Positions 1 through 12,025 of a stretch of 12,174 nucleotides of DNA are shown piece by piece (position 1 is the first letter of the stretch; each line of letters starts with the position of its first letter). A model generated the notes under the pieces. The model was not told where the DNA came from and did no database searches. It saw nothing but the letters and a program-made list of their open reading frames with translations. This DNA comes from a virus. The position numbers and the translations under genes are program-made. The stretch covers positions 1-12,174 of the IMG/VR virus record IMGVR_UViG_3300045988_033060; one strand, 5' to 3'.

Positions 1-149
1 AAAGGTACACAAAGCACGCAGATTTAACATTTCCCAACACATATTTAACAGATGCTAACACACTTTGGCACGTTTTTTGCTATGCCACATTTACGATTCT
101 TTAACATATTTAGCACACCGCAACTTTTGTTAAACTTTCATAAAAATAA

Positions 150-230
150 TGTTTCACGTGGAACGGTGGCAAAGTGATTGTTTCACGTGGAACAAATGAG
201 GGGTATGTTATAAATGTTTCACGTGGAACA
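150..230 (+). promoter_or_regulatory. Array of three direct copies of the dyad motif TGTTTCACGTGGAAC(A) in the left ITR (candidate protein-binding or iteron-like sites)
   Basis: The GTTTCACGTGGAAC core occurs at 151-164, 180-193 and 216-229, giving 29- and 36-bp spacing. All three copies share the same orientation and the same deviation from perfect dyad symmetry (TTTC versus GGAA half-sites). Confidence 0.7.
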
Positions 231-285
231 TTGCAGGTGTTAACAACAGTTAATTTATTTCTTTAAGACTTTTTAACGAAAATAA

Positions 286-317
286 TTTGGTTGGTTCGCA
301 AAAACGTGGTATCTTTG
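286..317 (+). promoter_or_regulatory. Bacteroidota-type promoter inside the left ITR (-33 TTTG, -7 TAnnTTTG), driving the plus-strand arm
   Basis: TTTG lies at 286-289, followed by 20 nt and then TAtcTTTG at 310-317. The predicted transcription start site (TSS) falls at about 322-325, at the ITR boundary. The first ATG is at 364. Confidence 0.65.
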
Positions 318-363
318 CACCGTTATTAAGAAACATAAGTTGAACAATTAAAATTATAAAATT

Positions 364-693
364 ATGGCAAAGTATAATATTACAGTGAAAGCTAACAGTA
401 ACGCAATTTGTAACGGCACACGTTTTACAAAAGATATTCCATTTCCATCTACTGTTATAAACGGTAATATGAATGATGTAGCAAATCATATTAATAAGAT
501 GCTAACGGGAATTTATAATATTAATCGAATCTCTATACAGGGTGTGCGTTATCCTAAAACTATGTATGCTTATAAAAGCAACATTGCAGATATTTACGCT
601 ATCGGTTACGGTTTCGTAACTGTAACTAACATTTATAGCGGTGAGTACATCGAAACATTACGTTACGAGTTTACAGCCGAAAGAATCGGTTAA
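364..693 (+). CDS. Hypothetical protein (109 aa), first gene of the left arm
   Basis: The ATG is the first one downstream of the ITR promoter. The ORF is followed by a perfect 10-bp hairpin. I recognise no motif. The antisense ORF 250-489 is judged spurious. Confidence 0.6.
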   Translation: MAKYNITVKANSNAICNGTRFTKDIPFPSTVINGNMNDVANHINKMLTGIYNINRISIQGVRYPKTMYAYKSNIADIYAIGYGFVTVTNIYSGEYIETLRYEFTAERIG

Positions 694-701
694 TATTAAC
701 T

Positions 702-727
702 GCCTGTAAGGTTCACCCCTTACAGGC
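702..727 (+). terminator. Stem-loop after the 109-aa gene (possible attenuator or RNA-stability element)
   Basis: gcctgtaagg (702-711) pairs perfectly with ccttacaggc (718-727) around a 6-nt loop. The trailing ttaaaataatt is A/T-rich but is not a clean U-tract. Confidence 0.35.
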
Positions 728-743
728 TTAAAATAATTGATAT

Positions 744-947
744 ATGAAACAGTCATATTTTAGAATCACATTGAAACAAGCCGGTGAAGTTACGGTTTTT
801 ATGGTACGCTCAGACAAAGTAAGCGAGTTCTTTAATAATAAGATTGATTACTTACAGAGCAATTGTTCAATAACAGTAAAGGGGCGTTTTCAAACGCACA
901 AAGATTCTCGCAAGTGGTTTATTGTTACACCAATAGAAAATAAATAA
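744..947 (+). CDS. Hypothetical protein (67 aa)
   Basis: It is tightly packed between neighbouring genes on the same strand, with 5 nt between its stop codon and the next ATG. No motif recognised. Confidence 0.55.
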   Translation: MKQSYFRITLKQAGEVTVFMVRSDKVSEFFNNKIDYLQSNCSITVKGRFQTHKDSRKWFIVTPIENK

Positions 948-952
948 GTGAT

Positions 953-1375
953 ATGAAAAAGATTAAGTACTTTAAATTGTCTGAGTTCATCAACTCAGCA
1001 ACAGCAAAACGTTTGGGCATTGATAATATGCCATCGTTTGAAGTAGTTGATAACTTGAATCGTTTGGCTGATTATTTAGATGGTATTCGTGCAAAGTTGG
1101 GTAAACCAATTTTAGTTAATAGTGGGTATCGTTGCCCGATGCTTAATAAGGCTGTCGGTGGGGTTGTTAACAGTCAACACCAAAAAGGTTTAGCCGCTGA
1201 TTTGGTTTGTGCTGATATGGAATCTTTAGAAAAGGTTCTAAGAGAAACAGGTGGTTATGACCAACTTATTAAAGAACATCGTAAGGGTTCGAAAAGTTTT
1301 TGGTTTCACGTTTCAGTTTGTAACCGTAACGGCAAACCACGTAACCAAATAATTATGAATCTAGAAAAGAAATAA
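953..1375 (+). CDS. Peptidase M15-family (D-Ala-D-Ala carboxypeptidase-like, zinc) peptidoglycan hydrolase; candidate endolysin
   Basis: YFKLSEF...SGYRCPMLNKAVGGVVNSQHQKGLAADL contains the H-x6-D zinc-ligand signature. A later His sits in FWFHVS. The size and layout are typical of phage M15 endolysins. No signal peptide or transmembrane segment is present. Confidence 0.85.
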   Translation: MKKIKYFKLSEFINSATAKRLGIDNMPSFEVVDNLNRLADYLDGIRAKLGKPILVNSGYRCPMLNKAVGGVVNSQHQKGLAADLVCADMESLEKVLRETGGYDQLIKEHRKGSKSFWFHVSVCNRNGKPRNQIIMNLEKK

Positions 1376-1377
1376 TT

Positions 1378-1626
1378 ATGGAAAAACCGTTGGAACTTCT
1401 TTTAAATTCGGTTAAAGGTTCAATAGATAGTTTACAATATGTTGCAGACCAAACAACAGATATAAACGGTATGGTTTTAATTTCTGTTATTGATGTTTTA
1501 AAGGCGCAAGAACTAGTAATAAGAAACATTTCTTGTATTTTAGATAAAGAAAAATCAATTAAAAACCGTGCTTTGGATTTTATTTGCAAAAAAGGTTTTA
1601 TAATAGAATTTTATAAAACAAAATAA
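1378..1626 (+). CDS. Hypothetical protein (82 aa), last gene of the left arm
   Basis: Its ATG lies 2 nt after the M15 stop codon, and its own stop sits directly before the convergent terminator. It is preferred over the antisense ORF 1353-1589. Confidence 0.55.
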   Translation: MEKPLELLLNSVKGSIDSLQYVADQTTDINGMVLISVIDVLKAQELVIRNISCILDKEKSIKNRALDFICKKGFIIEFYKTK

Positions 1627-1628
1627 GA

Positions 1629-1660
1629 AAACAGGCGGTAACAATTTTACCGCCCGTTTC
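1629..1660. terminator. Bidirectional intrinsic terminator between the convergent arms
   Basis: ggcggtaa (1634-1641) pairs with ttaccgcc (1647-1654). The stem is extended by aaac/gttt pairing. It is flanked by an A-run on the left and a T-run on the right. It lies between the stop at 1626 (+) and the stop at 1663 (-). Confidence 0.7.
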
Positions 1661-1662
1661 TT

Positions 1663-3465
1663 TTATAAATAAACGCCTGTTTCAAGTTGTGAAATAATTT
1701 CGTCATATTCAGAAACCAAAAGATTTGCAGCGTTTAAATTCACGTTTGCAAACTGTGCAAAACCTGTAACTGTATTTATAGTTACATTTTCTTGCGTGTT
1801 GTTTACAGGAACGTCAACGGTTAAATTCTCAGTAATCAATACATAAGGTTCTAAACCGTACAAAATTTGTTCGTTCCACCGTTCACCGCCAACAACGTTT
1901 AAATCTGTTCCCAAACGGTAAAGAACATCACGTGACAAAGAAAAACTTTCAATTTGGAACGTTACACCTTCACACGATAACAACGCCACGGCATCCCCTG
2001 TAATCACGTTTACTTTGATAGATAAATTAACCGCTTTACCGATATATTTATTATCAATAGAAACAACGCCACGGCACGGAATAAACATTTGTATCTGTGC
2101 GTTAAAGTCTTCGTTGTTACCGTTTGCGCCTGTTAGTTCAACGTTTCCGAAATCTAGCACAATAACATCACTATCGGGATATTTAACCTTTATCCCCGTG
2201 TTGTAGTTACCGCATTTAAGAACGTCTTCACCGCCAACGGGCACGGTAGCAAATATTCTTTTGATACGGTTTACATAATCACCCAAATTCACTTCTGAAT
2301 AATTTGTGCCCGTGTCACTTTCACCGATTGGTTTAAAGAAACGTTTCTTTGCAAATTCATTCAAATTATCCAACGTAACGATATAAACGTTTATTGCACC
2401 GTAATTTTTAATTGTTGGCGGTTGTATCACATTTGCATTTGCATAAACCGTTAAATGTGCAGACCCTGTTGTAAGTTCAAACGTTATATTTCCCGTTTGC
2501 TTATCTTCTGAAATTGTGCCCTGGTTTGAAACCCAATTACCAATTTCATTTTGGTAATTAACTTGAATCTCTGTTAATTCCGAATTAGGGTTTGCTCTGA
2601 AATTAAAAGTGTAACTTTGCCCCGTTTTAACCTTTACAGGTTTATCGCCAACGATTTCGCAATTAATCAAACTGTAATTAACTTCGATAAAATCGCCTAA
2701 CAGATACTCGCCATTGATAACAACAGATTCCGTTGCTATAGGTACAATAGCCGTTGCAGTTTGGTTTGTTACAGTCATATTGTACGTATCGCCACCGTAT
2801 GTTATTGTAGGTGTGCCGTTAAACATTCCATTTGCGTTTCCTGTAACCGTGACGGTGTAATTTGTTTCACTTGCAACAGAACTTGCCGTTGTGTTCTGAA
2901 TATTGTTGGTTATTTGCAGTTCCTTTACACCTGCGATAAATTCACCCGTTAACGTTATTTTTGCGTTACTTGAACAATTTACAGTAAGTGTTCCAACATT
3001 TCCATTTATTGCAAAATCGCCCTGTTTCCAATCACCGAAAACACCTTGATACGTTGCAGTTAAACTTTTAAACGTACCGTCACCGTTACCCGTTACCGTT
3101 ATAATAAAATGGTCTTCGTCTTCACCCTGTTCGTCTGTAATTGTAACATCACCCTTTAAACCTGTTGTGTTGTAAGTTAACAACGTCGTTGGCGTTGGTG
3201 AACTTGCAACAAATTCACCTGTTAACGAAATTCGTGTGTTACTTGAACAATTTACAGTAAGTGTTCCAACATTTCCATTTATTGTAAAATCCCCCTGTTT
3301 CCAATCACCGAAAACACCTTGATACGTTGCAGTTAAACTTTTAAACGTACCATCACCGTTACCCGTTACCGTTATAATAAAATGGTCTTCGTCTTCACCC
3401 TGGTTGTCGGTAATTGTAACATCACCCTTTAAATATGTTGTGTCGTATCTCAATAAATTATCCAT
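1663..3465 (-). CDS. Tail structural protein (600 aa): N-terminal tandem beta-sandwich-like repeats fused to a C-terminal region resembling the phi29 gp9 tail-knob C-terminus; candidate tail tip or receptor-binding protein
   Basis: It is the last gene of the late operon. Residues 4-86 and 95-177 are near-identical repeats, followed by more divergent VTVTGN-type modules. The C-terminal ...MFIPCRGVVSIDNKYIGKAVNLSIKV... and ...FAQFANVNL...EYDEIISQLETGVYL recall, from memory, phi29 gp9 segments MYPYCVTEITDF... and FNYVQTKD...LQEIRTIFDNGITLW. Confidence 0.55.
   Translation of the reverse strand: MDNLLRYDTTYLKGDVTITDNQGEDEDHFIITVTGNGDGTFKSLTATYQGVFGDWKQGDFTINGNVGTLTVNCSSNTRISLTGEFVASSPTPTTLLTYNTTGLKGDVTITDEQGEDEDHFIITVTGNGDGTFKSLTATYQGVFGDWKQGDFAINGNVGTLTVNCSSNAKITLTGEFIAGVKELQITNNIQNTTASSVASETNYTVTVTGNANGMFNGTPTITYGGDTYNMTVTNQTATAIVPIATESVVINGEYLLGDFIEVNYSLINCEIVGDKPVKVKTGQSYTFNFRANPNSELTEIQVNYQNEIGNWVSNQGTISEDKQTGNITFELTTGSAHLTVYANANVIQPPTIKNYGAINVYIVTLDNLNEFAKKRFFKPIGESDTGTNYSEVNLGDYVNRIKRIFATVPVGGEDVLKCGNYNTGIKVKYPDSDVIVLDFGNVELTGANGNNEDFNAQIQMFIPCRGVVSIDNKYIGKAVNLSIKVNVITGDAVALLSCEGVTFQIESFSLSRDVLYRLGTDLNVVGGERWNEQILYGLEPYVLITENLTVDVPVNNTQENVTINTVTGFAQFANVNLNAANLLVSEYDEIISQLETGVYL
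2935..3456 (-). repeat. Tandem duplication (273-nt period) inside the 600-aa tail gene
   Basis: 2935-3183 aligns with 3208-3456 at a fixed 273-nt offset. There are long identical runs and only scattered substitutions, most clustered near the copy boundaries. Confidence 0.95.
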
Positions 3466-3468
3466 ACC

Positions 3469-3912
3469 TTAAACGTTACCTTTAATAGTTACCATAATAA
3501 TACTACCTGTTTCATTCAACAACCCTTTATTCGGAAAATCTAGTTTTCTGATATTCGGGCGAGCATCAACCACATTTGTACGGTTTGAAAGATATTTGTT
3601 ACCGTTTTCACTTTTCGTTAACGTTGCGGTACTGTTTAAGATAATATCCTTATAAGTAAACAGAACGTCAATACGCAAACGAACTGTACAAATATCACCG
3701 TCTTGCTGTTTCTCAGAAACGAAATAATAACGGTTCAAACTTTCGATGTAAACGTAATTGAAAGTTACAGGCGTGCGAGTTCTGAAACGTACAACAGGTG
3801 TTAACACGTTGAATGTCGCATTTAACACGCCCGTATATTCTTCGTTTACCTGTAAATTCTTGTTTACTTCGTTGGGTTTGCCATCGTAAACGAAAGTTTT
3901 AATTTTAATCAT
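3469..3912 (-). CDS. Tail protein (147 aa) resembling the N-terminal domain of the phi29 gp9 tail knob
   Basis: It lies directly upstream of the 600-aa tail gene, separated by 3 nt. FNYVYIESLNRYYFVSEKQQDGDICTVRLRIDVLFTY recalls gp9 [41 protein letters not shown] (from memory). Confidence 0.45.
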   Translation of the reverse strand: MIKIKTFVYDGKPNEVNKNLQVNEEYTGVLNATFNVLTPVVRFRTRTPVTFNYVYIESLNRYYFVSEKQQDGDICTVRLRIDVLFTYKDIILNSTATLTKSENGNKYLSNRTNVVDARPNIRKLDFPNKGLLNETGSIIMVTIKGNV

Positions 3913-3925
3913 ACCTTTAAAGTTT

Positions 3926-3966
3926 AAAAGGGTGTTTCCTGTGCTATCAACTACAGGAAAACACCC
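3926..3966 (-). terminator. Intrinsic terminator or attenuator downstream of the capsid gene
   Basis: gggtgtttcctgt (3930-3942) pairs with acaggaaaacaccc (3953-3966) with one bulge. On the minus-strand transcript the hairpin is followed by UUUUAAACUUU. Confidence 0.6.
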
Positions 3967-3986
3967 TCAACAGTTAAACAATCAAA

Positions 3987-5171
3987 CTAGGCAACAAAGA
4001 ACACAACAAAGTTTTCGTTTGTGTCGTTGAAGTAGCCAGCATCGAATTTGAAGTAATTGTTGAAAAATTCTGCTTTGGCGTTGTAGTTTGTAGTTACACG
4101 CTTATCCAAATTGGTAACACCCAAAGCGTCACGGTCAAACATCACACCCAACACTCCACCGATAGAAACAGTTGCACCACTAGCAGATTTTACATCAATC
4201 TTTGAAACATTGGCGAAAGCGTAATCTGTGCCCGTTGCTTGCCAACTTGCCACGGTTTCCGCTTGTGGTAACAAAACGTTCTCATTATGGAACGTGTCTG
4301 CATACAGGTATGTTTTCGCAGCTGCTGCGAAATCTGACAACAGAACTGTATGCAAAACGTCTTTAGGTGTGAAACGTTCCTTACCGCCAACGTTAAACAG
4401 GGTTGAAATTGTCTGCAATCTGTCTGCATACAAACCCATCACATATGCAGCAAAACGGATAAAGTCTGGTGTTGTTACCGCTACATCTGCGTTCAAAGAT
4501 GCACCCGTCTTATCATTGTAAAGTTTCAACAGGTTCACACATCTAACTGTTGAAGCACTTGCATAGTCAACAGTTTCGTGTGTTGATGGAACGAAACCAA
4601 ATGCGGCTTTGTCTGCGTCCAGGGTTTCCGCAATCATATTGTTGATAGTACGCATAACAAGTGCGTCTGTCTTAATAGTCATTGACTTTTCAACTGCTGA
4701 GTAAATCATAGACAAAAAGCCGTTCAACTGTTCTGCGCTGCTAAAAGATTCCTTTACCTGTCTTTCAGTGATAGACACTGGAACTTCAAAAGTTACCTTT
4801 GAATTGAAGAACTTAGCAGAAACAGTTGGCTTGTGAAACACGTCCTGTTTGTACTCTGTACCGTCCGTAAGATTCCAACTATCATTTTCCTCAGCCTGTG
4901 GAACGTCAGCGGAAATTTTTTCCAATACAGAACCGAATTCCCAAGCGTCCATAAGAACCGATGGAACTTTACCACTGTAAGGGCGGTTAACGAAAACCAC
5001 TTTACCAATGTGGTTTACAAGTGACTTCACGTAATTATCAACGGCATTCTGATTAAAAACTTCATTGCCCAAATCAACAATACCTGTTAAATCTTCTTTT
5101 ACAATACCTGTTTTGCCCAATACTTCACCCGATACGGTGTTAACTAAACTATAAATCTGTTTTACTTCCAT
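3987..5171 (-). CDS. Major capsid protein, phi29 gp8-like (HK97 fold), lacking the C-terminal Ig-like domain
   Basis: Three segments parallel remembered phi29 gp8 segments. [23 protein letters not shown] parallels [36 protein letters not shown] parallels [23 protein letters not shown]...NFVVFFVA parallels VDKDWFMV...NAVAFVS. Its size, its position and the terminator behind it fit an abundant late protein. Confidence 0.85.
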   Translation of the reverse strand: [394 protein letters not shown]

Positions 5172-5189
5172 TTTTATAAAAATTAAGTA

Positions 5190-5759
5190 TTAATAAATAT
5201 CTATTGTTAACTCTTTTGCAAGTTCTGTTATTACTTGCGTTTTGAAATTAGTTTTGCGCAAACTCATTTCTTTTTGAATAATTTCGCTAGTAGGAACACT
5301 AGATGGGAAACCGTTTTTAACAACTGTTTTCGTGCCCGTTTCTTGTCGGTTTCCTGTGGAATCTCTTTGCTGCTTTGTGTCATTGCCGAAATCTCCATCA
5401 TTAAAAGTTACACTTGAATCAATGGTGTTGTTATTGCCTGTTTCGTCAACGGTGTTATTTGTTGTTTCCGTTGTCTTTGATGTTACAGGGTTCAACACAT
5501 CATATTCGTTATTAAACACTTGAATCTGTTTTTGCCATTCATCAAACTTCACCGTAATAATGCTTTTAACAATATCCGTTGCGGTTTCAGTTGTCACGGC
5601 ATCAACTAGAGTTCTGTTTCCATATTTGAAACGTAAATCAATATCAATTAATTTCGGGTCATCTTCCCCGAAAATTGATTCGTACAAAACAGGAAACAGG
5701 GGTGCAAAGATTTTTTCAAACAAACCATTTTCACCCGTGAAAAGTTCACTAAGTTTCAT
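5190..5759 (-). CDS. Virion-associated protein (189 aa); lower-collar or head-tail adaptor candidate, alternatively a scaffold
   Basis: Its start overlaps the portal stop by 11 nt. A helical N-terminal part is followed by a Thr/Asn/Asp-rich central stretch. Its position directly after the portal mirrors the phi29 gp10-gp11 order. No motif recognised. Confidence 0.4.
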   Translation of the reverse strand: MKLSELFTGENGLFEKIFAPLFPVLYESIFGEDDPKLIDIDLRFKYGNRTLVDAVTTETATDIVKSIITVKFDEWQKQIQVFNNEYDVLNPVTSKTTETTNNTVDETGNNNTIDSSVTFNDGDFGNDTKQQRDSTGNRQETGTKTVVKNGFPSSVPTSEIIQKEMSLRKTNFKTQVITELAKELTIDIY

Positions 5760-6804
5760 CTTTATTTTCTTTTTCTTCTGTTTCTTCTGTTTCTTCTGTT
5801 TCTTCTGTTTCTGTTTCTGGTTCTTCTGTTTCTTCTGTTTCTGTTTCTGTTTCCTCAGTTTCTTGCGTTTCTTCTGTTTCGTTTTCCGTTACAGGGTCAA
5901 CGTCTTCTGTTTCGGTGTGGTCGTGCCCGTCTTCTGTTGCTTTTAGCAACGACAAATAATTTTCGTGTTCGATTTTCCAACTTGACCCCAAAGTTACGGT
6001 TATATCCGTGCCGAACATTTCGTTAACACGTTTCACACCCTCAACACGTTCTGTTAACATTGAATCAACGAACGGCATCAAAGCGTCTATATTCATTGAA
6101 ACTTCTTGCGTGTTCAAACGTTCACGTTTCATATTATAGTTTGCATTCAAACCCAAATCGTTAAACAGGCTAGCTTTGTAGTACTGCAACAGTTCAATTA
6201 ATTGACCGATTTGTTGGTTTCCCTGTGTCGGTGGGGTCTGTAAGTTCACACCTTTGAAAAAGGCATTTTCACCGATAACAGAAAAATCACCGTTCAAAAT
6301 CTTCTGTAAGAATGATTCTGCGCTCTGTTTGGTCTTATCGTCACTTGCAGAAATAAGCATTGTGATTCTAGTTAAAATACTAGCCAAATTAAGCGTTATT
6401 GTTGCATCGGTGTAAAGAACTCCATATTTGCCAATTAACGGCAAAAGTGAATCCGCAAACGGTGTGTTGTTGATAACGACAATATCGGAATCGATTTTGA
6501 ACGTTTTGTTCAAATTTAACCACGGGTTTGCTACAACGTAATCTTTGCCGTGATAATAGGCATCGCATTCTCCACTCCGTGTGCCCTGTAACGCATACAG
6601 ATTCCCGTTTACTTCTGCTATTCCAACGTTACCAGATGTTTGCAGAATCTTTTCAAGTTCAACGGGCGGCATTGTTTCGGGTGTACCCGTATATTCAAAC
6701 ATCTTTGAAGTCATACAAAGAACTCGCTGCATAAACGTGAATAATGCTGCATCTTTGTTTTTAACTTCTGTTTGATACCTGTTATATAAGTTTTCCTTTT
6801 CCAT
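5749..6804 (-). CDS. Portal (upper collar/connector) protein, phi29 gp10-like, with an acidic Thr/Glu-repeat C-terminal tail
   Basis: [28 protein letters not shown] parallels gp10 [47 protein letters not shown] parallels NANLEKKERMVTDEVSSN (from memory). The C-terminus reads ...[37 protein letters not shown]. Confidence 0.85.
   Translation of the reverse strand: [351 protein letters not shown]
5760..5885 (-). repeat. Short tandem repeats (gtttcttct / gtttct units) encoding the E/T-rich portal tail
   Basis: The plus strand reads ttcttctgtttcttctgtttcttctgtttcttctgtttctgtttctgg... This region also produces the artefactual FFCFFC ORF on the plus strand. Confidence 0.9.
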
Positions 6805-6998
6805 TACTTTACAATCGTTTTAATTAAGGTGCAAAGTTCTGTTAACACCTTAGTGTTACTTTGCACGGTTTCGTTCAACTTGTCGGTTTCCTGTTGGTGG
6901 CGTTCGTTCTGTTTCTCCATATAAAAGAAAAGGGCGATACAAACAGCTATAGGAAAACCAACGTTACTGATTAATGATACTATTGCATTTGAGTCCAT
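6804..6998 (-). CDS. Small single-pass membrane protein (64 aa); holin candidate and first gene of the late operon
   Basis: It has one hydrophobic segment (AIVSLISNVGFPIAVCIALFFYM) followed by a charged, helical C-terminus. The GFPIAV-containing N-terminus recalls YvrJ-family small membrane proteins (from memory, unverified). Its stop overlaps the portal start (TAATG). Confidence 0.45.
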   Translation of the reverse strand: MDSNAIVSLISNVGFPIAVCIALFFYMEKQNERHQQETDKLNETVQSNTKVLTELCTLIKTIVK

Positions 6999-7030
6999 AT
7001 AGCAAATTTTAACTTTGTTATTTTATGATG

Positions 7031-7062
7031 CAAAGATAGGAAAATTATCTGGCAACACCAAA
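7031..7062 (-). promoter_or_regulatory. Internal Bacteroidota-type promoter for the structural (late) operon
   Basis: On the minus strand, TTTG (7062-7059) is followed by 20 nt and then TAtcTTTG (7038-7031). The spacing and the -7 box are identical to the ITR promoters. The ATG of the 64-aa gene is at 6998. Confidence 0.65.
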
Positions 7063-7106
7063 TAAACCAGGGGAAAAAGTGTTTCACGTGAAACATTTTT
7101 AACCCC
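7058..7106 (-). terminator. Extended hairpin after the ATPase gene (candidate terminator of the early operon) built around the dyad motif
   Basis: GGGGAAAAAGTGTTTCAC|GTGAAACATTTTTAACCCC (7070-7106) can fold into a stem of about 17 bp with small bulges. On the minus transcript it is followed by UGGUUUAUUUGG. It starts 12 nt after the stop at 7119. Confidence 0.5.
7080..7095. promoter_or_regulatory. Perfect 16-nt palindrome TGTTTCACGTGAAACA (candidate operator or activator site upstream of the late promoter)
   Basis: It has the same core as the six ITR copies but is fully symmetric. Its centre lies about 60 bp upstream of the predicted late TSS. Confidence 0.65.
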
Positions 7107-7118
7107 TGTTAACAGATA

Positions 7119-8258
7119 TTAAGTAATAATGTTACTTCTTGCACTTGCCATCAAGTAATTACGCACAATTTCGCCAATTTCGTTATTCTGATAAAATACC
7201 TTATCTGTGGCAAAATACTTAGTTATCTGTGATTCCACATAACTTGCAGTACTCAACAACTTTCGTTTGTAGTTTGGTTTGCCGTTCATTTGCAACGAAT
7301 ATATCAAACTGTTGTCCGTATCCTTAATAGGGGTTGTTTTGTTGTGAATGTAAATGAAGTTGTTCACCCCAGTTTCTTCGTCTTCCAACTGAATAACGTT
7401 GCCCTGTAAGGTCATTTCGTTAAACTGAATGTAGAATACAAACAACACGTCATTTGGTTTATATTTTACAGGCAAATGAGGATATACAGCGAGTTCCCAT
7501 TTACCGCCCGTAATCATTTGCAGATTTTCGTTATCGAAACAGAAATATTTGTTGCTCGCTTTGTGTTTAACAATCGTGCTACAATATTCTACTGCAACCG
7601 TTGCACCGTGTTCACCGAAACGGTAAATATCAATAGTTCCCTGTTCCATCACTCGCACCTGTTTCAATCCCATTTCTGAGAAATAAGGGCAAAACTGATT
7701 CACCGTATTACCTAACATAAAAACTTTAACATCGTTTCTCTGTCTGATAATTGTACTCAACAGGTTCATATATAACATAAATTCATCGGGCAAATAGTAA
7801 CGTCTTGTTAGGAACTCATCAAAAACTATTGTAGTTATGTTTGGATAACTGCTAGATTTTTCGTGTTCCTGTTCTGAAAGACAAAACCCGAAACAGAACG
7901 GTGTGTTATCGGGTACACGCTTTTTGGTTTCGGGGTCATAAGACGAAAGAAACCATTTACCCGAAATATAAAAGACTTCGTTAAACTTACCGCCTGTTAA
8001 TTCCTGTATCACGCCATTTGCAACGTGATTTGCAAACAAACTTTCGGCACGTTTGCCCCTCAAGTCTTCACGCCATCTACGAATATACGCCATTTGCTTT
8101 CCTGTGCGCAAATATTCTTTGATACCGTACAATAACGTTGCATACGTTTTACCGTTTGAACGTTCACCGAAAATAACGTTGTAATCTGCATTCTTTGATA
8201 AAATGCGATTCAACGTGTAAAATTTCGGTGTTTCTACCTTTTCTTTCTTCTGTTTCAT
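7119..8258 (-). CDS. DNA packaging (encapsidation) ATPase, phi29 gp16-like
   Basis: Walker A FGERSNGKTYA parallels gp16 IGARGIGKSYA. GKQMAYIRRW parallels GEQFIYVRRY. Walker B YPNITTIVFDEFLTR parallels YPNVSTIVFDEFIRE. Confidence 0.9.
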   Translation of the reverse strand: MKQKKEKVETPKFYTLNRILSKNADYNVIFGERSNGKTYATLLYGIKEYLRTGKQMAYIRRWREDLRGKRAESLFANHVANGVIQELTGGKFNEVFYISGKWFLSSYDPETKKRVPDNTPFCFGFCLSEQEHEKSSSYPNITTIVFDEFLTRRYYLPDEFMLYMNLLSTIIRQRNDVKVFMLGNTVNQFCPYFSEMGLKQVRVMEQGTIDIYRFGEHGATVAVEYCSTIVKHKASNKYFCFDNENLQMITGGKWELAVYPHLPVKYKPNDVLFVFYIQFNEMTLQGNVIQLEDEETGVNNFIYIHNKTTPIKDTDNSLIYSLQMNGKPNYKRKLLSTASYVESQITKYFATDKVFYQNNEIGEIVRNYLMASARSNIIT

Positions 8259-8262
8259 ATTA

Positions 8263-10467
8263 TTATTTCTTTAATCTGATTCCCATTAAATAATTAATAT
8301 AAAGAACTGAAAGACTTAAAGTGTACCCCGTTGGTTCTAAGTGAACACCCGTTAACGTGTCGTAACTTGAAACAGTACCTTTGTAATCTTTTATAGTTCC
8401 TGTCTGCTCATAATCAATATACGTGTGTATGTTCTTACCTGTTGCCGATGGTGGTATATCCAGGTAATTTGTGAATGCATCAAAGATTCCACTTTCACCA
8501 AACGTTTCTAGCATATACGGGATAGCCGATTTTTTGTTAACGCCCGAAACGGTAATTGAGTAATCGTAATCTTTGCCGTTTACTGTAAGGGCGTTTTCTT
8601 CTTGTACCATATAGCGTTTTGCACCTAGAGTTTTGAAACGGGTGTAACGCCCCTCATAATCCCAAACACCCAACGGTTTTGCGATTCCCTTTATCGTGAC
8701 GGGTTCAACCTTTTCAAAGGGTATTTTGTGAAACTTACAGGCGGCACGCAATTTCTGTTGTGCTAAATCGTTGTACGCTTTGAAATATTCTTTGTGGGCA
8801 TCACCGTTCATAATTTTAACGGAATCGGTATCACTGTATATGTAATCGTCACCACATTCCGAAATACCCGTGAAAAGATTTCTACGGGCATAAGCGGTAA
8901 CATAAATACCCCACGGGTAAAACAAAAAGCGGTTTTTGCTATCATTGTATTTATTCAACATTTCTAACTGCTTTTCGCCTGTAAGGTGTTCAATATCCCA
9001 CGTTTCACCGTCACACAAAATTTCATCACGCAACGGGTTTGTAACACACATACCGTAACAACTGTTTAGCATTTCTTTGCTATTTAAATACTCAACCTCT
9101 TTGCCCTTTACACCCTTTAGTTTTGTTTTCATTTCATACAGGTGCAAAATAGATTCTACAAATTCAGTTGGCAAATATTCTTTTCTGTAACAAATCATTT
9201 GCCCAATTCGTATTTGTTCCCACGTGTAAAACTGTGAAAACACTTTGTAATCTATTTCGGTAATGGTCATACATATTTTCTTTGCACAAACCAATCGCCC
9301 GTTATTCTCAGAAACGTTTTCTTTCACGAAACATTTACTAACAGAAATCGGATTCTCGTTTTCTGATTTCGCAAATATGTTTGTTATCTCTACATCGAAC
9401 ACGCAACAAAATTTGCTAATCATAAACTCAAATTGCTTCATTGACTTTATAGGTACAATAACACCTGTGCTCATCGGAAACCTTTCTGAAACCATCACAT
9501 AAGGGTAACTGCTGGTAAAATCGTAACTGTCAACGTTTTCAATTACTTCATCGGTGTATTTTGCATTTGCGTGCGTAAAACCGCCTGAAAACGCCCGTTG
9601 TAACATCGCAAATTCTTCCATACCTGTTATATTTAAGTTGTGAATCTTATCAATATATTTAAAGTTTGGAATTGTTTTGCCTGTTTCGTCAGTTGTTTTA
9701 AAACAAACAGAACGGCAATATTTACGAACAAACCCCGTTTTTGTAATCGGCAAACGTGTTATTCCTTTGTAACGTTCCAATAGTTCCTGGATGTAGCACA
9801 TCACCACTTTTATATCATTCAGACAGTAACCGATTTCTTTTTGTGTTAACGGGGTTTTACTGTGACGTAACAAACTATAATCCAAATCACCAACTAACTT
9901 TTCACATTTGTAGATGTGTAATTGTTCGCCTAATTTCGCCAACGAATAACCCGATAATAAGTAACTGCATCGGAACTCTAAACCCGTTTTTGTTATTCCG
10001 TAAATTGGTTTTCGTAAATCAATAGAGAAAACTTTTTCCCATTCCAACAACTCACGGAAAAATTGGAACTCATAAGCCAAATTGTGAACATATATAATAA
10101 TTCGTTTCTTTGGGCAAAGTTCTAATATATCCACTATACTGGATAACATTTGCAAAAATTCTTCCCACGTTCGCCCCATTATGCAAAAACCGTTTATTCC
10201 AAATTGCCAAACATACATTAAAGAACACTTTTCCATTTTAGTTTCTTTACCGCCTAATTTCATATAGCGTTCGTAACTGTATGTTTCCCCGTATTCATCA
10301 CGGTAAAATGATGTAGTTTCAATATCGAAAGATACAGGAACATTCAAGAACTTTTCGCCCTTATTGTTTCCTGTAAAATTCTTTTCGTTAACAGCCAAAG
10401 ATAAAACCTTTGCAATATCTTTAGGCGTGTAAACTTCTGTATGTAGTTCAAAGGGTATTTTCTTCAT
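8263..10467 (-). CDS. Family B DNA polymerase, protein-primed type
   Basis: Exonuclease motifs: ExoI FDIETT, ExoII HNLAYEFQF, ExoIII YCLNDIKVV. Polymerase motifs: A DSYDFTSSYPY, B KEMLNSCYGM, C YSDTDSV, plus KxY in GAKRYM. The gene sits in a linear ITR genome directly downstream of the candidate terminal-protein gene. Confidence 0.95.
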   Translation of the reverse strand: MKKIPFELHTEVYTPKDIAKVLSLAVNEKNFTGNNKGEKFLNVPVSFDIETTSFYRDEYGETYSYERYMKLGGKETKMEKCSLMYVWQFGINGFCIMGRTWEEFLQMLSSIVDILELCPKKRIIIYVHNLAYEFQFFRELLEWEKVFSIDLRKPIYGITKTGLEFRCSYLLSGYSLAKLGEQLHIYKCEKLVGDLDYSLLRHSKTPLTQKEIGYCLNDIKVVMCYIQELLERYKGITRLPITKTGFVRKYCRSVCFKTTDETGKTIPNFKYIDKIHNLNITGMEEFAMLQRAFSGGFTHANAKYTDEVIENVDSYDFTSSYPYVMVSERFPMSTGVIVPIKSMKQFEFMISKFCCVFDVEITNIFAKSENENPISVSKCFVKENVSENNGRLVCAKKICMTITEIDYKVFSQFYTWEQIRIGQMICYRKEYLPTEFVESILHLYEMKTKLKGVKGKEVEYLNSKEMLNSCYGMCVTNPLRDEILCDGETWDIEHLTGEKQLEMLNKYNDSKNRFLFYPWGIYVTAYARRNLFTGISECGDDYIYSDTDSVKIMNGDAHKEYFKAYNDLAQQKLRAACKFHKIPFEKVEPVTIKGIAKPLGVWDYEGRYTRFKTLGAKRYMVQEENALTVNGKDYDYSITVSGVNKKSAIPYMLETFGESGIFDAFTNYLDIPPSATGKNIHTYIDYEQTGTIKDYKGTVSSYDTLTGVHLEPTGYTLSLSVLYINYLMGIRLKK

Positions 10468-11129
10468 TATAAGCCAAATTTTATAAAACTTTTTAGAATC
10501 TTTGCGAGTGTATCATCTAACAAACCTCTTATTCGTTCCTGTTCTTCTTCGATGGCTTCAGCCTGTTCGTTCAAATCGTCTTGCAACGAATCTGCTATTT
10601 TTATTGCATCACTTTCGATTTGGTCGGAAACGTCTTTACTCTCTTGTTCAAGTTCACCTGTAAAATCTTTGTACTGCATTAAATACTGTTCCAAAAACCT
10701 TTCATCTGAAACACTTGCAATTTTACCCATCAATTTATTTTGCATCAAACTAAATTCATCGTCATTTAGTTCGTATGTATCCTTCAGGTGCTGTGCATAT
10801 TCTTTTGTACCCGTTGCACTTGATGTTGGCTGTTGCAAAAACGCCACCGCTTTTGCATATTCGATTTTTAAATCATTCCAATCGTGTTTCATTGAAAATT
10901 TTGTGAACCCTTTTATATCACCCTTATTAAGAGCAACAACGGCTGGCGAAACAATACCCGAATTTTCAACATTTTGAATGCGTCTGTTTGCCTGTTGAAA
11001 AGTTCGTGCAATTTCTTTTCGTAAAACAGGGTCTGATTCTAAAGCGGTTAAAATCTCACTTTTTACGTGAATTTTACCAGTAAATGAAAAGGTTCTTTTG
11101 CTAAAACCAATAGGATTCCTTTTTGCCAT
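10467..11129 (-). CDS. Candidate terminal protein (220 aa)
   Basis: It lies immediately upstream of the polymerase and is translationally coupled to it (TAATG overlap at 10467), as in phi29 genes 3 and 2. The N-terminus is basic (MAKRNPIGFSKR..., RKEIARTFQQANRRIQN). The C-terminal half is strongly acidic (ELEQESKDVSDQIESD...EEEQE) and ends KFGL, compared with phi29 TP ...KGF. Confidence 0.5.
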   Translation of the reverse strand: MAKRNPIGFSKRTFSFTGKIHVKSEILTALESDPVLRKEIARTFQQANRRIQNVENSGIVSPAVVALNKGDIKGFTKFSMKHDWNDLKIEYAKAVAFLQQPTSSATGTKEYAQHLKDTYELNDDEFSLMQNKLMGKIASVSDERFLEQYLMQYKDFTGELEQESKDVSDQIESDAIKIADSLQDDLNEQAEAIEEEQERIRGLLDDTLAKILKSFIKFGL

Positions 11130-11148
11130 AACTTACTAAATTTAAAAT

Positions 11149-11196
11149 GAAACAAAAACGGGGGCAACAATAAACAAAGTTACTGTTTACCCCCGT
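11149..11196 (-). terminator. Intrinsic terminator or attenuator between the 121-aa gene and the terminal-protein gene
   Basis: cggggg (11159-11164) pairs with cccccg (11190-11195). There is an inner taaaca/tgttta stem. On the minus transcript the hairpin is followed by UUUUUGUUU. Confidence 0.6.
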
Positions 11197-11224
11197 GACG
11201 TTATCCACCCTTTACCCTACGAAA

Positions 11225-11590
11225 CTACTTATCTACAAAGGTAATACCGTAACACTTTTTGGCGTGCGATTCATATTCGTAAATTGTGTAACCGACTTTG
11301 TTGGCTTTGATAGCGTCCACCGCATCACTATTTGCGAGAATCTCTCTAACTGTGTCACCTGTGAACTGTGGTAAGTTAACTAATCGCTTGTTTTCTGCGT
11401 CAATGATTACAGGTGAATCGCCCAACTGCGATTTGTGAACGTACATACCATTAATAGGGTGTACTACATCACCGCCACCATCTTTCTCATCGTTGTAAAT
11501 ATCGGTCAACTTTACAAACGGAAAATCGGTCGTATCAATACCGAAACTAGTCTTATTGAAAGTACTAGCGAAACTAAAACCTTTAGCCAT
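11225..11590 (-). CDS. Early protein (121 aa); possible abundant DNA-binding or SSB-type replication accessory protein (positional guess only)
   Basis: The ORF is clean, lies upstream of the TP-Pol pair and is followed by an attenuator. Its size and position resemble phi29 p5/p6. No motif recognised. Confidence 0.3.
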   Translation of the reverse strand: MAKGFSFASTFNKTSFGIDTTDFPFVKLTDIYNDEKDGGGDVVHPINGMYVHKSQLGDSPVIIDAENKRLVNLPQFTGDTVREILANSDAVDAIKANKVGYTIYEYESHAKKCYGITFVDK

Positions 11591-11637
11591 AACTTTACAC
11601 TTTTAAAACGTTAAACTTCTGTTGTCTGTGAACGGGG

Positions 11638-11805
11638 TTACTTTACCTCATTCACCCCGTTAGCTGCTGCAAACTCGTTCAACCACTTCTTAAAACGGTT
11701 CAACTTGATAACCGCCTTATCATCTTTTGCGACTTCATCTGAAGTCATAAGAGCGTTAACACTAGTAATACAGTTGAAAACAGTTTCATTAAAAATCTCA
11801 TTCAT
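11638..11805 (-). CDS. Small hypothetical protein (55 aa), first ORF of the right arm (below the ORF-track cutoff)
   Basis: My hand translation gives MNEIFNETVFNCITSVNALMTSDEVAKDDKAVIKLNRFKKWLNEFAAANGVNEVK*. Its ATG sits at the position homologous to the left-arm ATG at 364, behind a related 5' leader. Confidence 0.45.
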   Translation of the reverse strand: MNEIFNETVFNCITSVNALMTSDEVAKDDKAVIKLNRFKKWLNEFAAANGVNEVK

Positions 11806-11857
11806 AATTTTACCTAATTTAAATTGTTAAACTTATATTGTTTCTTAAAACACGGTG

Positions 11858-11889
11858 CAAAGATACCACGTTTTTGCGAACCAACCAAA
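11858..11889 (-). promoter_or_regulatory. Bacteroidota-type promoter inside the right ITR, driving the replication/packaging operon
   Basis: It is the mirror copy of 286-317. On the minus strand, TTTG (11889-11886) is followed by 20 nt and then TAtcTTTG (11865-11858). Confidence 0.65.
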
Positions 11890-11944: not shown

Positions 11945-12025
11945 TGTTCCACGTGAAACATTTATAACATACCCCTCATTTGTTCCACGTGAAACAATCA
12001 CTTTGCCACCGTTCCACGTGAAACA
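11945..12025 (-). promoter_or_regulatory. Array of three copies of the dyad motif in the right ITR
   Basis: GTTCCACGTGAAAC occurs at 11946-11959, 11982-11995 and 12011-12024, the reverse complements of the left-ITR copies. Confidence 0.7.

Follow-up and report, generated by a model that had tools for sequence, protein, structure and literature searches.

The subject of this analysis is the DNA of an uncultured virus, IMG/VR record IMGVR_UViG_3300045988_033060, the whole stretch of which, 12,174 bp in length and 36.5% in G+C content, is referred to below as the window, and, in particular, the signals that direct transcription and translation of its genes. The window begins and ends with an inverted terminal repeat (ITR), whose arms of 323 bp are 100% complementary, and between these arms 15 credible genes are arranged in three transcription units. 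With such perfect terminal arms, and with a phi29-type gene set in which the polymerase, the phi29-type capsid protein, the connector and the ATPase all have Pfam/PHROG matches above cut-offs, the window is the complete linear 12.2-kb genome of a protein-primed mini-podovirus of the phi29/Astrithrvirus type. Each of the three units is preceded by a sequence of the form TTTG-N20-TATCTTTG (N20 being a spacer of 20 nucleotides, nt), and both these sequences and the initiation regions of the genes carry features typical of the phylum Bacteroidota. The overall layout is as follows (aa, amino acids):

1..323: left ITR, noncoding, with three CACGTG palindromes and the entire promoter P_L
286..317 (+): promoter P_L, with TTTG at 286-289, N20, and TATCTTTG at 310-317; predicted start at about 322-324; drives the left operon
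364..1626 (+): left operon, with genes for a 109-aa protein, a 67-aa protein, a 140-aa endolysin and an 82-aa protein
1663..6998 (-): structural operon, six genes, read from 6998 down
7031..7062 (-): promoter P_M, with TTTG at 7062-7059, N20, and TATCTTTG at 7038-7031; predicted start at about 7024-7026; drives the structural operon
7119..11805 (-): replication/packaging operon, five genes, in an order matching that of Salmonella phage Astrid and Acinetobacter phage Phanie
11852..12174: right ITR, the mirror copy of the left ITR, carrying P_R
11858..11889 (-): promoter P_R, the ITR copy of P_L, with TATCTTTG at 11858-11865; predicted start at about 11851-11853; drives the replication/packaging operon

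As to the promoters, a first-pass annotation of this DNA had proposed three of them and had identified their form with the -33/-7 consensus of Bacteroidota. A pattern search finds the full motif at all three sites, which represent only two independent sequences, because the outer two both lie inside the perfect ITR and thus are copies of one another. The identification of the consensus agrees with the literature, where the primary-sigma promoters of Bacteroidota are described as having TAnnTTTG at -7 and TTTG at about -33, and as being recognized by sigma-ABfr (PMC7366714). The distance from the -7 box to the first ATG is 47 nt for P_L (ATG at 364), 33 nt for P_M (ATG at 6998) and 53 nt for P_R, and the predicted 5' untranslated regions (5' UTRs) measure approximately 27-47 nt, the median for Bacteroides being 32 nt (PMC7366714). 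The probability of encountering the full motif by chance in two independent upstream regions of 100 nt is about 1e-6. The bare octamer TAnnTTTG shows no genome-wide enrichment (19 found versus 20.4 expected); its placement, the TTTG that accompanies it and its conservation are what depart from chance. Some further candidates were discarded. One loose match (2591-2619, +) lies within the tail gene, antisense to the genes, and another (6988-7017, +) overlaps, also in antisense, the start of the holin-like gene and the structural operon's conserved 5' UTR; both were taken as chance occurrences. A fourth promoter, TAACTTTG at 11175-11182 (-), ahead of the terminal-protein gene, has no TTTG at -33, is present in 14 of 87 relatives, and is located inside a conserved hairpin.

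Conservation of the promoters can be followed in a large group of relatives. In IMG/VR, 366 related contigs are found, of which 80 were retrieved as the close relatives; these are mostly 11-12.7 kb in length, and their capsid proteins are 89-98% identical to that of the window. Among the relatives, the -33 block (ATTTGGT) and the -7 block (TATCTTTGCA) are near-invariant, while the sequence of the spacer is variable. At P_M, the boxes are invariant in 62 unique relatives, with the spacer being 20 nt in 61 of these, and at P_R the boxes are near-invariant in 57 unique relatives, with the spacer being 20 nt in 52 of the 55 scored, amounting to 113 of 117 scored spacings for the two sites together. 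Conserved boxes separated by a spacer that drifts in sequence while keeping its length are the footprint that would be expected of a functional two-box promoter. The TAnnTTTG box is also kept at orthologous sites in more distant members of the clade (L078, L087, L088, L116). At the site orthologous to P_M, upstream of the small membrane-protein gene, a gut relative that uses Shine-Dalgarno sequences (L003, MT836125.1) has TTGACA-N17-TATTGT along with the Shine-Dalgarno sequence AGAGGTG; the regulatory layout is common to this genome and the window, while the promoter and ribosome-binding signals differ with host type.

The second line of evidence comes from translation initiation. The absence of Shine-Dalgarno sequences, noted by the first-pass annotation for 16 start codons, is borne out, though for 15 genes rather than 16: the cores GGAG, GAGG and AGGA are found at -18 to -4 of none of the 15 (0.8 expected by chance), versus 8 of 13 genes in Astrid and 10 of 13 in Phanie (18/26 together; Fisher p = 9e-6). 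The frequencies of adenine at positions -14 to -11 of the 15 genes are 0.67, 0.80, 0.80 and 0.67 (mean 0.73), versus flanking values of 0.41 and 0.32 (binomial p = 9e-7), and at the same positions across 517 unique upstream regions of the clade they range from 0.55 to 0.77. Position -3 is occupied by A at a frequency of 0.47 and by G at a frequency of 0.40, thus by a purine in 87% of the genes, and all 15 lack an ATG in the region -20 to -1. Features of this kind, the peak of adenine at -14 to -11 included, have been reported from ribosome profiling of Bacteroidetes (PMC6847099). The same script was applied to four other phages as controls, with the following results:

Window: adenine (-14 to -11) 0.73; guanine (-13 to -7) 0.12; 4 intergenic promoter motifs
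Bacteroides fragilis phage B124-14: adenine 0.64; guanine 0.15; 4 intergenic promoter motifs
Prochlorococcus phage P-SSP7: adenine 0.30; guanine 0.23; 0 intergenic promoter motifs
Astrid: adenine 0.35; guanine 0.43; 0 intergenic promoter motifs
Phanie: adenine 0.33; guanine 0.35; 0 intergenic promoter motifs

Judging from these patterns, translation in the window appears to start without Shine-Dalgarno pairing, in the manner of Bacteroidia. The B. fragilis siphophages B124-14 and B40-8 resemble the window in adenine frequency (0.64), in low guanine, in purine at -3 (0.82) and in the presence of intergenic TTTG-N-TAnnTTTG motifs, while being otherwise very different, as siphoviruses of 45-48 kb that encode a terminase and do not employ protein-primed replication.

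The third line of evidence is the phylogenetic distribution of these signals. A capsid-protein tree was built for 30 representative genomes, each scored for a Bacteroidota-type signature, namely, Shine-Dalgarno cores close to zero, an adenine peak of 0.55-0.73, guanine of 0.04-0.14, and usually at least one intergenic promoter motif. The signature is confined to a single clade of 12 genomes (the window, L004, L014, L057, L063, L078, L086, L087, L088, L090, L116 and L119), and all 18 genomes sampled outside this clade, Astrid and Phanie included, are users of Shine-Dalgarno sequences. The clade is recovered with 100/100 neighbour-joining bootstrap support in the trees of the capsid protein, the polymerase and the ATPase alike. 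Such a distribution fits a single switch of host phylum, which would have been followed by a wholesale replacement of expression signals.

Host assignment through genome bins was also attempted, and rejected. In species-representative genomes, 40 whole-phage contigs are binned in assorted metagenome-assembled genomes, and within the signature clade the labels of the bins include Melainabacteria/Gastranaerophilales, Prevotella, Scatosoma, Christensenellaceae and Acutalibacteraceae. These labels contradict each other and do not track the expression signature: the phages in two "Bacteroidales" bins (L097, L115) use Shine-Dalgarno sequences, and the ones in "Christensenellaceae" or "Acutalibacteraceae" bins (L116, L119, L090) do not. 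Since the labels do not follow the signature, binning is unusable as evidence of the host, and this includes the Melainabacteria/Gastranaerophilales bins. The whole-phage contigs in species-representative bins are probably contaminants; contigs of the family sit in the reference bins L084, L085, L086, L087, L090, L097, L115, L116 and L119. At the nucleotide level, a megablast search of the window against 50,697 phage records returned no relatives, and contigs coding for the capsid protein are represented by one short contig only, from the ENA run ERR1018296 (Logan assembly).

A further pointer is the endolysin, a protein of the M15_3 type, whose best matches among isolated phages are in the B. 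fragilis siphophages (46-50% identity), the next best being in Achromobacter phages and gut microviruses; in a protein-database search the matches were filled by members of the clade. Another small protein, the 64-aa membrane protein, had been read by the first-pass annotation as a counter-signal, on account of a likeness to the YvrJ family, associated with Firmicutes. This objection falls away: the match to YvrJ (Pfam PF12841) scores 23.2 bits, below the cut-off of 29.5, and covers residues 9-26, the 18 residues of a transmembrane helix; the protein fits a PHROG holin family better (3.4e-9); and a small membrane-protein gene occupies the same position in Astrid and Phanie. The 64-aa protein is uninformative as to a Firmicutes host.

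Overall, we consider the host to be a member of the Bacteroidota, most plausibly a gut member of the Bacteroidales, with a probability of about 80%. The assignment to Bacteroidota, already proposed in the first-pass annotation, is well supported, because the conservation of the promoters, the translation signature, the restriction of the signature to one clade and the affinity of the endolysin all point in this direction. Certain observations weigh against it. The host is not linked to the phage directly, by an isolate, a prophage context or a CRISPR spacer match (no spacer search was made); the two closest matches in genome collections are binned with Melainabacteria/Gastranaerophilales, though the labels in the clade are contradictory and do not follow the signature; the nearest cultured relatives infect Proteobacteria; the transcription starts are predicted rather than mapped; and the cyanophage used as a control is a rough proxy for Melainabacteria.

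If the assignment is correct, all expression would be carried out by the machinery of the Bacteroidota host. The host RNA polymerase with its primary sigma factor, of the sigma-ABfr type, would recognize TTTG at -33 and TATCTTTG at -7 across the 20-nt spacer. The two identical ITR promoters would fire inward, with P_R transcribing the replication/packaging genes and P_L the small operon bearing the endolysin, and P_M, an independent promoter located after a terminator hairpin, would transcribe the structural genes, presumed to be late. Translation would begin on leaders that are A-rich and unstructured, in which adenine peaks at -14 to -11, position -3 holds a purine and AUG is lacking upstream. 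The dependence on this sigma factor, the exact starts and the early or late assignment of the operons are, like the identity of the host, what we infer from these signals.

Of the alternatives, the one that survives best, though we regard it as improbable, is that the host is a gut bacterium of the Gastranaerophilales (Melainabacteria, non-photosynthetic Cyanobacteriota), and that the low usage of Shine-Dalgarno sequences comes from the cyanobacterial lineage. Cyanobacteria do make little use of Shine-Dalgarno sequences, the closest species-representative matches of the window (L084 and L085, with capsid proteins 92% and 91% identical) are binned as Melainabacteria/Gastranaerophilales, and the low G+C content is alike, if the "33" in the name of the L084 bin is read as approximately 33% G+C, compared with the 36.5% of the window. 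However, coverage and composition are unreliable criteria for placing a free phage contig of 12 kb in a bin, and the bins of the clade conflict with each other; the motif conserved at -33/-7 has the Bacteroidota consensus and is not of the -35/-10 type; and the adenine peak at -14 to -11, characteristic of Bacteroidetes (PMC6847099), is absent from the cyanophage control.

Less probable still is the possibility that TTTG-N20-TATCTTTGCA is read by a factor encoded by the phage itself, or that it is used in replication or packaging, its likeness to the Bacteroidota promoter being a coincidence. In its favor, the 55-, 67-, 82-, 109- and 121-aa proteins have no assigned function in Pfam/PHROG scans, permissive Pfam scans included, and two of the three sites are in the terminal repeats; in protein-primed phages such as phi29, terminal repeats carry the origins of replication. 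Against it, P_M is internal and lies precisely in the gap between a terminator and the start of the structural genes; the two boxes match, and so does the canonical spacing; the translation signals, read genome-wide, point independently to the same phylum; and no sigma-like or RNA polymerase-like domain is found in the proteins of the window in Pfam/PHROG scans. The weakest of the alternatives is that the host is a proteobacterium, as for Astrithrvirus and Phanie, or a Firmicute, as for the classical phi29-like phages, with the motifs being by-products of A/T-rich intergenic DNA: while, by capsid protein, polymerase and ATPase, the best isolated relatives are phages of Salmonella, Acinetobacter, Pectobacterium, Enterobacter, Shigella and Vibrio, and the weak YvrJ/BhlA-like match of the 64-aa protein might be cited in its favor, it is largely refuted by the absence of Shine-Dalgarno cores compared with Astrid and Phanie, by the lack of enrichment of sigma-70-like sites in the window (38 found versus 37.5 expected), by the constancy of the boxes on either side of a drifting spacer, a pattern that excludes chance, by the limitation of the signature to one fully supported clade, and by the position of the YvrJ match under the Pfam cut-off.

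Turning to the genes, those with a recognizable product or a homolog, and two of the small ones, are the following:

953-1375 (+): Peptidase_M15_3 endolysin, 140 aa (Pfam/PHROG scans)
1663-3465 (-): C-terminal part of the tail knob/receptor-binding protein, 600 aa, with homology to Astrid ORF010 (E = 3e-4)
3469-3912 (-): N-terminal part of the tail knob
3987-5171 (-): major capsid protein (Pfam Phi29_MCP, 5.7e-55)
5190-5759 (-): 189-aa protein, homologous to Phanie gp7
5749-6804 (-): gp10 connector (Pfam Phage_connector, 4e-14)
6804-6998 (-): membrane/holin-like protein, 64 aa (holin phrog_4898, 3.4e-9)
7119-8258 (-): gp16-type packaging ATPase
8263-10467 (-): protein-primed family-B DNA polymerase (DNA_pol_B_2)
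10467-11129 (-): putative terminal protein, 220 aa, directly upstream of the polymerase gene
First two genes of the right operon (-): 55-aa and 121-aa proteins

The closest known systems are Astrithrvirus (Astrid, astrithr and assan, which are phages of Salmonella) along with Phanie, Pectobacterium phage DU_PP_III, Enterobacter phage Entb_47 and Vibrio phage K58 g2, linear phages of 10.4-11.9 kb that infect Proteobacteria, which are diderm. Terminal inverted repeats, as in the window, are seen in Astrid and Phanie, and the three share a gene order: small genes, putative terminal protein, polymerase, gp16 ATPase, membrane protein, connector, a protein of 185-190 aa, capsid protein and a split tail knob. 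The 220-aa protein, which has no Pfam/PHROG match, is 33% identical to the Astrid gene product encoded at the same place upstream of the polymerase, and the homology between the C-terminal half of the tail knob and Astrid ORF010 suggests the same virion plan. Identities to the Astrithrvirus group are 56-59% for the capsid protein, 42-46% for the polymerase and 51-53% for the ATPase. In addition to being users of Shine-Dalgarno sequences without TAnnTTTG promoters, Astrid and Phanie differ from the window in having no intergenic terminator-plus-promoter between the ATPase and the membrane-protein genes, where the window has both, and in that their lysin, of the CHAP or amidase type, is encoded last in a long operon, while the window has its M15_3 endolysin in an operon on the opposite strand. 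Genera are demarcated by the International Committee on Taxonomy of Viruses at approximately 70% intergenomic identity. With nothing detected by megablast, and with protein identities of only 46-59%, the window falls outside the genus Astrithrvirus, and on these comparisons it is a lineage related to, but separate from, the latter.

Of the better studied phages, phi29 itself (Bacillus, Salasmaviridae) resembles the window in its terminal inverted repeats, protein-primed polymerase, gp16 ATPase, gp10 connector and type of capsid, as well as in having separate units for the replication genes and for the central structural block, the early or late timing of these in the window being presumed. It differs in its size (19 kb), sigma-A promoters of the -35/-10 type, strong Shine-Dalgarno sequences, monoderm host and packaging RNA (pRNA), as well as in its tail knob, made of a single protein, and its terminal repeats of 6 bp. 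No match to the phi29 pRNA was found in the window with Rfam at E <= 1, pRNAs being too divergent for absence to follow from this; the main noncoding space for any pRNA is the first approximately 285 nt of the ITR. The sole Rfam match, a trpB motif (E = 0.6), is below threshold and not credible, and a tRNA scan of the window returned no tRNA genes.

The proposal in the first-pass annotation that this type of phage is known mainly from Firmicutes and Mollicutes, and that the window would extend it to a diderm phylum, is outdated, as the nearest cultured relatives already infect diderm Proteobacteria, and a claim of a first diderm host is not supported. The phi29-like phages of Gram-negative bacteria (Astrithrvirus, DU_PP_III, Phanie), whose tail knob is split and whose lower collar is shortened, were reviewed in 2024, and the same work (Evseev et al., 2024; PMC11476376) describes a metagenomic phi29-like genome, isolate 2692_55609 (cluster 30), from human faeces, of 12,148 bp and 42.5% G+C, also with a split tail knob. 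For this singleton, protein homology was the only basis on which Bacteroidales were proposed as the host, and an analysis of promoters or Shine-Dalgarno sequences was not reported (PMC11476376). Compared by description only, its capsid protein and polymerase are reportedly closest to those of Amedibacillus phage AD70P2, while those of the window are closest to the Astrid type. Beyond this suggestion, no phi29-like isolate from Bacteroidota is described in the literature that we found. The evidence from expression signals and the size of the clade are thus new, while the concept of phi29-like phages in Gram-negative and possibly Bacteroidales hosts has already been published, and this limits the surprise. 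As to how a minimal tail may cross an outer membrane, Phanie presents a known answer, in a relative.

Besides the promoters, the noncoding DNA contains hairpins and palindromes:

151-164, 180-193 and 216-229: palindrome GTTTCACGTGGAAC (CACGTG), in the left ITR upstream of P_L
1628..1660: intrinsic terminator, bidirectional, where the left and structural operons converge, with a 14-pair stem and T-run (-) and an 8-pair stem and T-run (+)
7066..7108 (-): terminator-like hairpin, CAGGGG...CCCCUG followed by UUUAUUU, ending the right operon directly upstream of P_M
7081-7094: seventh copy of the palindrome, within the stem of this hairpin
11155..11197 (-): conserved hairpin and U-run within the right operon, separating the 121-aa gene from the terminal-protein gene
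11946-11959, 11982-11995 and 12011-12024: mirror copies of the palindrome, in the right ITR

The 71-nt stretch with the terminator-like hairpin (7055-7125) folds at -19.7 kcal/mol (z = -2.9), and compensatory changes are found among the relatives in its G/C arms. The 66-nt stretch with the internal hairpin (11140-11205) folds at -23.7 kcal/mol (z = -5.25), also with compensatory changes in the stem, and this hairpin is a probable internal attenuator, which would set the ratio of the small early proteins to the terminal protein and the polymerase. The palindrome, GTTYCACGTGRAAC, is present in 7 copies, versus 0.01 expected, all noncoding. In the close clade it has a mean of 4.3 copies per genome, 95% of them noncoding, and it is also kept in distant members: L090 has 8 copies, all in the terminal repeats, in L116 the palindrome box lies between the -33 and -7 boxes, and L106 and L107, both users of Shine-Dalgarno sequences, have one palindrome per terminal repeat. 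The palindrome is probably bound by a phage-encoded protein, either a regulator or one that binds the origin; permissive Pfam scans of the small proteins produced no candidate DNA-binding regulator.

Some observations concern the terminal repeats and the variable modules. Beyond position 323, the 5' UTRs of the left and right units remain homologous, imperfectly, as far as the ATG, and the notion that the ITR ends exactly at the transcription start was rejected for this reason, even though the perfect identity stops at 323. In the relatives L004-L085, the longest exact terminal inverted run is often 55, 99, 119 or 141 nt, which are the usual assembler k-mer sizes, and the boundary of the ITR is therefore not meaningful, as assembly limits how long a terminal repeat can be in these metagenomic contigs. 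In the window, the two arms may likewise owe their 100% identity in part to collapse of the repeat by the assembler. The 600-aa tail protein contains a direct duplication (2929-3183 and 3202-3456; 273-nt period, 255 nt aligned, 91% identical), encoding two tandem domains of approximately 91 aa at its N-terminus, and it is the most variable protein in the clade (32-90% identity, compared with 89-98% for the capsid protein), as would be expected of a host-range determinant. The putative terminal protein exists in two forms, about 70% or about 94% identical to that of the window, the other core proteins of these genomes being mostly 85-99% identical. The gene for the 109-aa protein, the first in the left operon (364-693), is detectable in approximately 12 of 82 close relatives. 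The connector ends in an acidic C-terminal tail (5749-5890, -) rich in Glu and Thr (...ETEETEETEE...), coded by an array of 9-nt repeats that overlaps the start of the next gene (5749-5759).

A fuller scenario may be entertained, in which a large, abundant and uncultured gut lineage of protein-primed podoviruses of about 12 kb underwent one switch of host phylum and had all of its promoters and translation-initiation signals rewired for Bacteroidota, perhaps being incapable of infection on its own, as Phanie is, and passing the outer membrane with the contractile tail of a helper phage, and perhaps having its operons switched by a phage protein that binds the palindromes of the terminal repeats and of the middle promoter; taken as a whole, this combination is speculative and rather unlikely.

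In conclusion, if the host assignment is true, gut Bacteroidales are infected by a branch of the smallest class of tailed phages that is abundant but uncultured, with 366 related contigs in IMG/VR and no representative among the GenBank phages searched. The clade would then present a natural experiment in host switching: across one branch, genomes with Shine-Dalgarno sequences, one or more of which also has a sigma-70-type promoter, stand opposite genomes with -33/-7 promoters and A-rich leaders. Expression signals can thus be used as a predictor of the host phylum where binning fails, the labels of the bins being plainly wrong in the present case. With three short conserved promoters in a genome of 12 kb, the phage may also become a source of parts for Bacteroides genetics.

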